NCBI GenBank assembly: GCA_947631495.1
Contig: CANRLO010000002.1
Span: 1-62,828 of the forward strand
Direction of reading: 5' to 3'
Source: an uncultured Clostridia bacterium
GTDB lineage: Bacteria; Bacillota; Clostridia; TANB77; CAG-508
DNA length: 62,828 bases
Part shown: in pieces, positions 29,778 to 30,941 of the stretch
Layout of the letters: every line of letters starts with the position of its first letter
How positions within the stretch are numbered: the stretch's first letter is position 1
Made by a program: the position numbers and the translations under genes
The notes under the pieces: generated by a model
What the model saw: the letters and a program-made list of their open reading frames with translations, nothing else
The model's database searches: none
What the model was told of the DNA's origin: nothing

Positions 29778-30941
29778 ATGACGGAAATGCTTGATACTGT
29801 ACACACACACACACACACACACACACACACACACACACACACACACACACACACAGATAACTTTAATGAACAAGAAAAAACGAAGCAACGAAAATCAAAC
29901 TTGGAATTATTAAGAATATTTAGTATGTTTTTAATTATAATTTCACATTTTTCATACCATAGTGGATTTGATTTTGGACAAGATATAAATTTTAATAGAA
30001 TTTTCATTAGAGCGTTACAAATAGGGGCAAAAATAGGTGTTGATTGTTTTGTTTTAATATCAGGATATTGTATGATTAATTCAAAATTTAAAATGAGTAA
30101 ATTAATTAACTTAATAATAGAAGTGTTTATATATTCGTTATTGGGTTTGACTTTAGAATATATTTTGAAACCAACAGAATTAAATTTTAAAAATATAATA
30201 AAATCATTCTTTCCAGTAACATTTGGAAATTATTGGTTTATTACTACCTATATTGTTTTGTATTTATTATCACCTTTTATCAATAAATTCATTAATATGG
30301 TAGAAAAGAAATTTTTTCAAAATTTACTTATTATATTAATATTTATAGAAATTATAATTCCAACAATTTCAACTTCAGAAGTTAGCGTACATGGAATTAT
30401 TTTATTTATTACATTATATATGATTGGAGCTTATATTAATAAATTTCCTAATAATTTATTTAATAGTAAAAGGGTAAGTGTAATTTTAACTATTATTATG
30501 TATGCACTACTTATGATATCAGTTGTAGTTATAGATTTTATTGGAACTAAAATGCAATCTATAAGTTCTCATATATATTACTTTACTAAAGAAAATTCTA
30601 TACCAACTGTATTATGTAGCATATTTATCTTTATGAGTTTTAAAAACATAAAAATTTTTTATAATAAGAATATAAATAAAATAGCAAGTACAACATTAGG
30701 AATATATTTAATACATGAAAATATGTTTATTAGACCAATTATATGGAAAGATATTTTTAAGTGTAATGCATATATAAATTCACAATATTTGATTTTAAAT
30801 GCAATAATTTCCATAATAAGTGTATTTATAATATGTATAATTATTGATATATTAAGACAAGCAACTATAGGAAGATTTATTAATAAAGTAGTAGAATATA
30901 GTATAAATAAATATAGAGATAAAATAAAAGTTCAAACATAA
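29778..30941 (+). CDS. acyltransferase-3 family membrane O-acyltransferase with N-terminal (His-Thr)9 encoded by an (AC)27 tract
   Basis: AAGGAGA RBS then ATG 29778. After the repeat, NLELLRIFSMFLIIISHF is the family start motif, followed by a polytopic region. Confidence 0.75.
   Translation: MTEMLDTVHTHTHTHTHTHTHTHTHTDNFNEQEKTKQRKSNLELLRIFSMFLIIISHFSYHSGFDFGQDINFNRIFIRALQIGAKIGVDCFVLISGYCMINSKFKMSKLINLIIEVFIYSLLGLTLEYILKPTELNFKNIIKSFFPVTFGNYWFITTYIVLYLLSPFINKFINMVEKKFFQNLLIILIFIEIIIPTISTSEVSVHGIILFITLYMIGAYINKFPNNLFNSKRVSVILTIIMYALLMISVVVIDFIGTKMQSISSHIYYFTKENSIPTVLCSIFIFMSFKNIKIFYNKNINKIASTTLGIYLIHENMFIRPIIWKDIFKCNAYINSQYLILNAIISIISVFIICIIIDILRQATIGRFINKVVEYSINKYRDKIKVQT
29801..29855 (+). 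repeat. (AC)27 dinucleotide microsatellite inside the coding sequence
   Basis: Uninterrupted acac... from 29801 to 29854 (27 units by my count), 8 codons after the start codon. Confidence 0.97.

Follow-up and report, generated by a model that had tools for sequence, protein, structure and literature searches.

The stretch of DNA analysed here, referred to as the window throughout, is the whole of contig CANRLO010000002.1 (62,828 nt, 25.9% GC) from an uncultured Clostridia bacterium and carries a gene for an acyltransferase-3 (AT3) family integral-membrane protein, the 5' coding end of which contains an exact and uninterrupted (AC)27 microsatellite. The gene is the penultimate member of a polysaccharide locus, and the features on which the following argument depends are listed below by coordinates, strand and content.

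17035..32123, + strand: host polysaccharide locus of the Wzx/Wzy type, from Pfam scans
29764..29769, + strand: Shine-Dalgarno (SD) sequence AAGGAG, 8 nt before the ATG, read directly
29777..29800, + strand: the 24 nt abutting the tract on its 5' side, AATGACGGAAATGCTTGATACTGT, the window's diverged copy of a conserved block, whose last 10 nt TTGATACTGT match the core of that block
29778..29780, + strand: ATG start of the leader and acyltransferase open reading frame (ORF), in frame with the full ORF at n = 27
29778..30941, + strand: AT3-family integral-membrane acyltransferase, complete ORF of 387 aa, Pfam domain at aa 41-356 (nt 29898-30845)
29791..29793, + strand: TTG in the +1 frame, chosen by gene callers as 'start' for off-phase orthologues (MILYTHTH...; P0003, P0005, P0006), without an SD
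29792..29794, + strand: TGA stop in the +2 frame, within the conserved cTTGAtac, read directly
29801..29854, + strand: (AC)27 microsatellite encoding (His-Thr)9 in the present frame, a putative hypermutable switch with an (AC)9 allele in otherwise identical DNA
29858..29860, + strand: TAA at which a tract shorter by one unit (or longer by two) ends translation one codon on, the frame reading AGA TAA (29855-29860)
29911..29913, + strand: TAA, the stop 18 codons past the tract after gain of one unit (or loss of two), read from the frames

The leader codons are ATG ACG GAA ATG CTT GAT ACT GTA, with the A of GTA forming the first A of the tract, and the ORF translates as MTEMLDTV(HT)9DNFNEQEKTKQRKSNLELLRIF... 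Tandem Repeats Finder (TRF) scored the tract at 27.5 copies with a 100% match, no other dinucleotide run in the window exceeds five units, and none of 100 dinucleotide-preserving shuffles contained a 20-nt AC run. Since the unit of 2 nt is not a multiple of three, a change by one unit shifts the frame, and both alternative frames end early, leaving 1, 361 and 18 codons open after the tract in the three frames. The original prediction had described a 54-nt (AC)27 tract 8 codons past an ATG preceded by a ribosome-binding site, which is what we find, except that the tract had been extended to 29855, a position occupied by a single extra A behind the last unit at 29854. Its further description of (His-Thr)9 fused to an AT3 membrane protein agrees with both the ORF translation and the Pfam match, and the stops of the alternative frames lie exactly where it had placed them.

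The match to Pfam Acyl_transf_3 (PF01757; E = 3.9e-28, 98.9 bits against a cut-off of 31) covers protein residues 41-356 and profile positions 3-324 of 326, so that the AT3 domain lies wholly 3' of the tract. The AT3 family is defined by the R-x10-H motif, an arginine and a histidine of the first transmembrane helix. Here R46 and H57 are separated by 10 residues, and both fall in columns at least 90% conserved among 120 aligned homologues. The intact ORF has 649 homologues and is conserved; no NCBIfam equivalog matched the acyltransferase.

Two readings under which tract length would act differently were considered and set aside. A start codon 3' of the tract, as the original prediction had itself allowed for, lacks a credible candidate, the sole in-frame one being a TTG inside the conserved SNLELLR motif without an SD; homologues without a tract begin 5-20 residues ahead of the conserved R-x-SNLELLR motif. 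A promoter-spacer switch, with TTGATA as -35 and the weak TAnTTT as -10 element, would require spacers of 21-61 nt for the observed n of 7-27, which is incompatible with sigma-70-type promoters, and the tract is situated 3' of the ATG within the ORF, not between -35 and -10 elements. No known RNA family was found in the window at Rfam gathering scores.

Comparison with other assemblies demonstrated that the tract varies in length in otherwise identical DNA. The protein closest to it in the database (P0001) differs only in having (HT)3 in place of (HT)9. Its contig (L001), which stems from an independent ENA metagenome assembly, aligns with the window over 2,478 nt without a single mismatch except at the tract, where it carries (AC)9 instead of (AC)27, a distance of 18 units. 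The shorter allele is unlikely to represent a collapsed repeat, because its 19-nt run is below the smallest k-mer usual for SPAdes-type assemblers. Tract length is thus not invariant, the same gene having (AC)9 in another sample with flanks 100% identical. Three other assemblies of the gene end at the first tract bases or approximately 90 nt past the tract, and exact-protein look-ups of the neighbouring genes for further alleles of the exact gene returned two more contigs, both ending at the tract, with no other record for the UDP-glucose dehydrogenase protein.

AT3 orthologues at 45-63% identity carry an AC tract in the same place, and among them both phases were observed directly. The 63%-identical orthologue is present in two assemblies which, over 1,302 nt, show no difference besides one AC unit: with (AC)10 (L005) the gene is off, the leader frame stopping after 20 codons, and with (AC)11 (L057) it is on, with 371 codons. 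Likewise, the members of a further locus pair (L093 and L116) differ by two units with 0 mismatches over 4,666 nt, and an on and an off allele (L023 and L165, respectively) differ by two units with 3 mismatches over 5,359 nt. Among orthologues and paralogues there are differences of single units, each of which toggles the frame. Because these pairs differ solely or almost solely there, the tract is by far the most mutable site in the compared regions. Across 33 distinct alleles in which the module is fused to a downstream ORF, this ORF lies in the leader frame in 11, in the +1 frame in 12 and in the +2 frame in 10, corresponding to 11 on and 22 off alleles, and all downstream ORFs are intact (140-461 codons). 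An even spread over the frames combined with intact ORFs supports frequent reversible slippage, since neither a fixed linker nor pseudogene decay predicts it. Taken together, the length polymorphism in identical DNA, the on and off relatives and the even frames across the 33 alleles support the proposal of a slipped-strand contingency locus.

One N-terminally truncated AT3 homologue (P0011) was considered as a possible off allele and rejected as a different case, having no AC tract. Its gene belongs to another organism and is split in all six assemblies in which we found it (L187-L192), again without an AC tract. These copies show small indels near the 5' end, including a run of A5 versus A6 (ggaggaaaaa(a)tagg), which may reflect homopolymer-based variation or decay.

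Prompted by the conserved 5' flank among the orthologues, we scanned species-representative genomes with the pattern GATACTNTACACACACAC and obtained 59 matches, approximately 48 of which lie in about 30 low-GC metagenome-assembled genomes (MAGs) labelled uncultured Clostridia, Clostridium or Eubacteriales. The module-bearing MAGs have 26-28% GC, derive mostly from rabbit gut and also from Hadza human, mouse and further gut samples, and contain up to eight module copies each; the module was also found on low-GC metagenome contigs and on six of the eight matching IMG/VR viral contigs. The layout over 53 distinct loci comprises an SD and ATG, 3-16 variable Lys-rich codons, a conserved block, (AC)7-27 and a weakly conserved RGnTAnTTT, and the arrangement of SD, ATG and leader is present at about 40 related loci. 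From an information-content profile of the 53 loci, the conserved 24-nt block 5' of the tract reads AAnnGCTGnAAsCsTTGATACTsT. Judged by its sequence, the window's tract is one instance of this portable module of SD, ATG, variable codons, 24-nt block and (AC)n. The view expressed in the original prediction that a tract this long is unusual for a clostridial-type genome needs amending for this particular lineage, in which long AC tracts are recurrent and multi-locus. A description of the leader and AC module was not found in the literature searched.

The design recurs at more than 50 loci, and the proteins fused downstream include AT3 acyltransferases of several families, hexapeptide acyltransferases, MaoC-like proteins, N6/N4 DNA methyltransferases (some of them on phage contigs), a NUMOD4 protein and a QueC-like protein; the module is also found internal to hsdS, ahead of the second target-recognition domain of HsdS. 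The genes behind the module are of classes typical of contingency loci (AT3 and hexapeptide acyltransferases, DNA methylase, HsdS, MaoC-like and surface or pilin-like proteins). In the hsdS genes of type I restriction-modification systems (L014, L031, L044, L080, L074, L114, L125) the block and (AC)7-14 stand between the two target-recognition domains, and alleles of one gene differ in their units (14 vs 7; 14 vs 13). From these sequences, the variation is predicted to yield full-length and truncated specificity subunits. Module-bearing phage and prophage contigs of 26-28% GC (L196, L198, L199, L201 and L202 from IMG/VR; L023, L049, L076, L138, L147, L165) carry it on N6/N4 DNA methyltransferase genes (n = 7-12, with on and off alleles) and on one NUMOD4 gene, and in one IMG/VR contig (L199) it is located upstream of an uncharacterised 161-aa ORF.

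Overall, we consider it probable, at roughly 80%, that (AC)27 acts as a slipped-strand contingency switch for the gene of a polysaccharide O-acyltransferase of the AT3 family. Slippage as the cause, together with the switching rate, the reversibility within a clone, the substrate and the phenotype, is what we infer, and the mechanism would operate as follows. Ribosomes would load at the SD and ATG (29764-29780) and translate the eight leader codons before reaching the tract. Whenever n is divisible by three, as with 27 units here and 9 in the other sample, they would read through a (His-Thr) tail, positioned N-terminal to the first AT3 motif, into the enzyme, whereas loss of one unit would lead to a stop one codon beyond the tract and gain of one unit to a stop 18 codons beyond it. 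Replication slippage in the perfect 54-bp repeat would alter the unit number far more often than other sites mutate, so that a clonal population would become a mixture of cells with and without an acyl (probably acetyl) group on the polysaccharide of the Wzx/Wzy locus. Such mixed acylation would be expected to vary antigenicity and the use of the polysaccharide as phage receptor. The lineage of low-GC gut Clostridia and its prophages carry the same module on many contingency-type genes.

Several points weigh against this interpretation. The contig with (AC)9 has a coverage of approximately 2x. The two full alleles known for the exact gene (27 and 9 units) are both in frame and differ by a multiple of three, with no off allele among them. 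The TTG in the +1 frame could in principle allow weak expression in one 'off' phase, and the conservation of the 24-nt block is not accounted for by simple slippage and hints at something more.

The last point leads to an alternative which we regard as unlikely, namely that the 24-nt block serves in cis as the target of a trans-acting factor, which would bring about instability, joint regulation or cassette copying, so that slippage would not be purely passive. A nuclease or nickase, a recombinase, a DNA- or RNA-binding protein, or an RNA would be conceivable as such a factor. The block accompanies the AC tracts of this lineage: 79 tracts of (AC)>=6 occur in 561 kb of fetched low-GC loci, 75 of which have the exact GATACTNT flank, and of the remaining four, three have a flank with one mismatch (GAGACT, GGTACT, GCTACT). 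It is also present on phage contigs and is conserved across unrelated genes in about 30 species-level MAGs, whereas the loci diverge upstream of position -24 and beyond the tract. An artefact of the search pattern was dismissed as the origin of this conservation, because positions -9 to -24 lie outside the pattern and are nevertheless strongly conserved, with T at -9 in 53/53 loci, and because the three tracts with one-mismatch blocks were found incidentally. Furthermore, the block uses codons which are non-preferred in this genome (ACC 7%, AGC 10%, CTT 12% and GCT 29% of their synonymous sets), suggesting a constraint on the nucleic acid rather than on the peptide; with third-codon positions fixed on such codons, conservation as a peptide is unlikely. 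The CTTGATA/TTGAT part resembles nick and target motifs of HUH nucleases, which we take as a lead only, and inspection of the ends of the window's TnpB element for a TnpB or HUH-nuclease link to TTGAT revealed nothing relevant. However, the analysis turned up no candidate factor, in all studied bacteria a perfect repeat of 14-54 bp suffices for high slippage, and the window's own block, although it has kept the core TTGATACTGT, has 4 mismatches to the consensus in its 5' half. The similarity of the flanks could also be maintained by shared ancestry together with gene conversion that uses the AC tract as its anchor.

A switch with three states would be quite unlikely in our estimation. Here, n = 0 mod 3 would give high expression from the ATG, n = 2 mod 3 low expression from the TTG at 29791 (MILY(TH)n...), and n = 1 mod 3 none because of the TGA. 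TTGAT, of whose five bases TT alone lay outside the search pattern, is found in 53/53 loci and supplies both the +1 TTG and the +2 TGA, and gene callers do choose this TTG for off-phase orthologues. Yet the TTG has no SD of its own and sits 21 nt from the SD of the ATG, and the module can be internal, as in hsdS, where a start codon is irrelevant. Since alleles in the +1 (TTG) frame are no commoner than those in the TGA-blocked +2 frame (12 vs 10), there is no sign of rescue, and the TTG 'starts' are probably artefacts of gene calling.

It is very unlikely that the tract instead forms a variable His-Thr linker which tunes activity, metal binding or folding, in a gene selected to be always in frame and never off. 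Both known alleles of the gene would fit, encoding (HT)9 and (HT)3, and there is a precedent in NeuO, the catalytic efficiency of which scales with the in-frame repeat number (PMC3046976). A dinucleotide unit, however, cannot step by one without a frameshift, the 63%-identical orthologue is found both off and on, a single unit apart with nothing else changed, the frames are evenly spread over the 33 alleles, and the module also stands on short leader ORFs and inside hsdS without an obvious role for a His-Thr linker. Finally, there is a negligible probability that the tract arose in assembly or is a neutral microsatellite of a gene in decay: short-read assemblers handle long dinucleotide runs badly and four of five other assemblies of the gene break at or near the tract, but the flanks are unique and identical across independent assemblies, the ORF is intact with its 649 homologues and a Pfam E = 4e-28, and the design is repeated at >50 loci.

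Beyond the slippage switch on the acyltransferase gene, a wider reading may be put forward tentatively, in which the block and (AC)n form a dedicated portable phase-variation cassette and not independent microsatellites, including a block recognised by a factor and an attenuation gated by the simple sequence repeat (SSR). In this joint proposal, which we judge unlikely overall, the block would be a functional nucleic-acid element, and the factor recognising it would promote instability, regulate the loci together or spread the cassette by copying. Fused to the N-terminus of a protein or placed within it, the cassette would give chromosomes and phages a means of rendering any gene switchable, and in a second design the frame of a short leader would decide whether a ribosome melts a terminator upstream of pilin-like genes. 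The SSR-gated attenuation design was not found in the literature searched.

Many other loci show no fusion, the module instead opening a short leader ORF that is followed by a strong terminator-like hairpin with a T-run, and the genes 3' of these terminators encode large proteins with prepilin-type N-termini (groups L009, L011, L027, L045, L047; L013, L028, L038; L019, L063; L017, L029, L033; L037, L042, L052, L055, L112). In five related loci, the pairing of a 24-bp terminator stem is kept through 4 compensatory changes. At most leader loci, one frame extends over 23-37 codons (78 at most) before stopping within, or immediately ahead of, the 5' arm or the loop of the terminator, and the other two frames stop within a few codons. 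As a single frame reaches the terminator, the phase of the tract may decide whether a translating ribosome disrupts it, which suggests, as a hypothesis outside the window's gene, an attenuation gated by the repeat. This would resemble coupling of the pyrBI type. In addition, a (GA)2-5 run (ctggagagag...) approximately 30 nt 3' of the AC tract varies between copies (L024, L025, L035, L038, L054, L059, L063, L064) belonging to a paralogous leader family of the MAG Lapin-027__bin83 and its relatives, with the long downstream ORF in different frames; it may be a second small slippage site.

The locus to which the acyltransferase gene belongs runs, in order, from a priming sugar transferase through GT4 glycosyltransferases, a hexapeptide acyltransferase, a radical-SAM/SPASM protein and a second AT3 protein without a tract to Wzy, GT2, Wzx, a TupA-like ATP-grasp protein, PGA_cap, the AT3 protein with (AC)27 and a UDP-glucose dehydrogenase. 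Nearly all window ORFs of at least 120 aa are on the + strand, and because the gap between the PGA_cap gene and the AT3 gene is 26 nt, the latter is probably co-transcribed with the former. The terms 'capsule' and 'O-acylation', as used for this locus, are deduced from Pfam families and locus content and should be read as putative. Given that the second Acyl_transf_3 gene (20866-21819) has no repeat tract, one of two acyl decorations would be switchable. Two UDP-glucose dehydrogenase genes with 96% protein identity are present, one at the end of this first locus (30957-32123) and one inside a second polysaccharide locus (40963-42129), and the latter copy could buffer a polar effect of the off state on the former.

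The first locus is followed on its 3' side by an integrase gene, a TnpB gene and then the second polysaccharide locus. Perfect 26-nt inverted repeats at 32228-32253 and 33562-33587 (TTTCGTAAAGTTAATTCCTTTACGAA and its reverse complement) bracket a 1.3-kb segment holding the tyrosine-integrase gene (32557-33495) between the two polysaccharide loci, and this segment could be invertible and thereby represent another kind of switch. The TnpB / IS605 OrfB-like gene (33617-34870; Pfam Cas12f1-like_TNB, OrfB_IS605) lies between the integrase gene and the second locus. Elsewhere in the window, TRF detected tandem repeats at 888-1002 (36-nt unit x3.2, 89% match) and at 52948-53054 (34-nt unit x3.1, 80% match).

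In the literature we searched, the detailed work on phase variation through slippage of repeats concerns cultured pathogens almost wholly (Haemophilus, Neisseria, Campylobacter, Helicobacter, mycoplasmas and pneumococcus), and work on Clostridia and gut commensals concerns mainly DNA inversions. On our interpretation as a contingency switch, a lineage of uncultured low-GC gut Clostridia and the phages infecting it would run a multi-gene, repeat-based switch system spanning capsule decoration, DNA methylation (potential phasevarions), restriction specificity and pilin-like surface proteins. As a consequence for this group, MAG annotation will mis-call many genes as truncated or TTG-started, short-read assemblies break at the AC-tract sites, and a single consensus sequence does not reveal the surface chemistry of a strain. 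Module loci can be catalogued with the conserved flank as a simple search key of 18-20 nt, and the 24-nt block is a defined element bearing on passive versus assisted switching.

Several known systems resemble the one described here. Haemophilus influenzae oafA and Neisseria meningitidis lot3 are phase-variable AT3 lipopolysaccharide O-acetyltransferase genes in which a 5' coding repeat gives on/off O-acetylation; they differ from the window's gene in having tetranucleotide or homopolymeric repeats, in belonging to Gram-negative pathogens and in lacking a shared leader module. Streptococcus pneumoniae wciZ (15B/15C) is, like the window's gene on our reading, a Gram-positive capsule-locus O-acetyltransferase gene with a coding dinucleotide repeat, a (TA)n whose length change causes a frameshift and loss of O-acetylation, and mixed 15B/15C populations occur (PMC5028725). 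The wciZ repeat, however, is a short TA run near nucleotide 413 inside the gene, whereas the AC tract lies 8 codons from the start; it has neither a conserved flanking block nor a genome-wide set of module loci, and it belongs to a cultured organism, with the phenotype shown serologically. In E. coli K1, neuO, the polysialic acid O-acetyltransferase gene of the CUS-3 prophage, carries a 5' variable number tandem repeat (VNTR) and is on at multiples of three (PMC3046976). Here as well, the VNTR is located just past the start codon, in-frame alleles encode N-terminal extensions of varied length, and the gene is a phage-borne 'mobile contingency locus' modifying the capsule. The differences are the heptanucleotide unit AAGACTC, a single locus per genome, a soluble left-handed beta-helix acetyltransferase instead of an AT3 membrane protein, and repeat-encoded heptads known to raise activity.

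With regard to the whole set of loci, the SSR phasomes of Haemophilus, Neisseria, Campylobacter, Helicobacter and mycoplasmas share the principle of one favoured repeat type on many surface-glycan, restriction-modification and adhesin genes. This includes SSR-bearing hsdS with the tract between the two target-recognition domains (PMC7383803), a layout identical in four of our loci (L014, L031, L044, L080). For Clostridioides, a 2025 review of phase variation lists invertible elements only (PMC11868660). In the established phasomes the repeat unit alone is common to unrelated genes, whereas here, in uncultured gut Clostridia and with AC as the unit, the 24-nt flank travels too. The working principle is known; the AC unit and the host lineage set the present system apart, and most of all the specific flank that travels with the repeat across unrelated genes.

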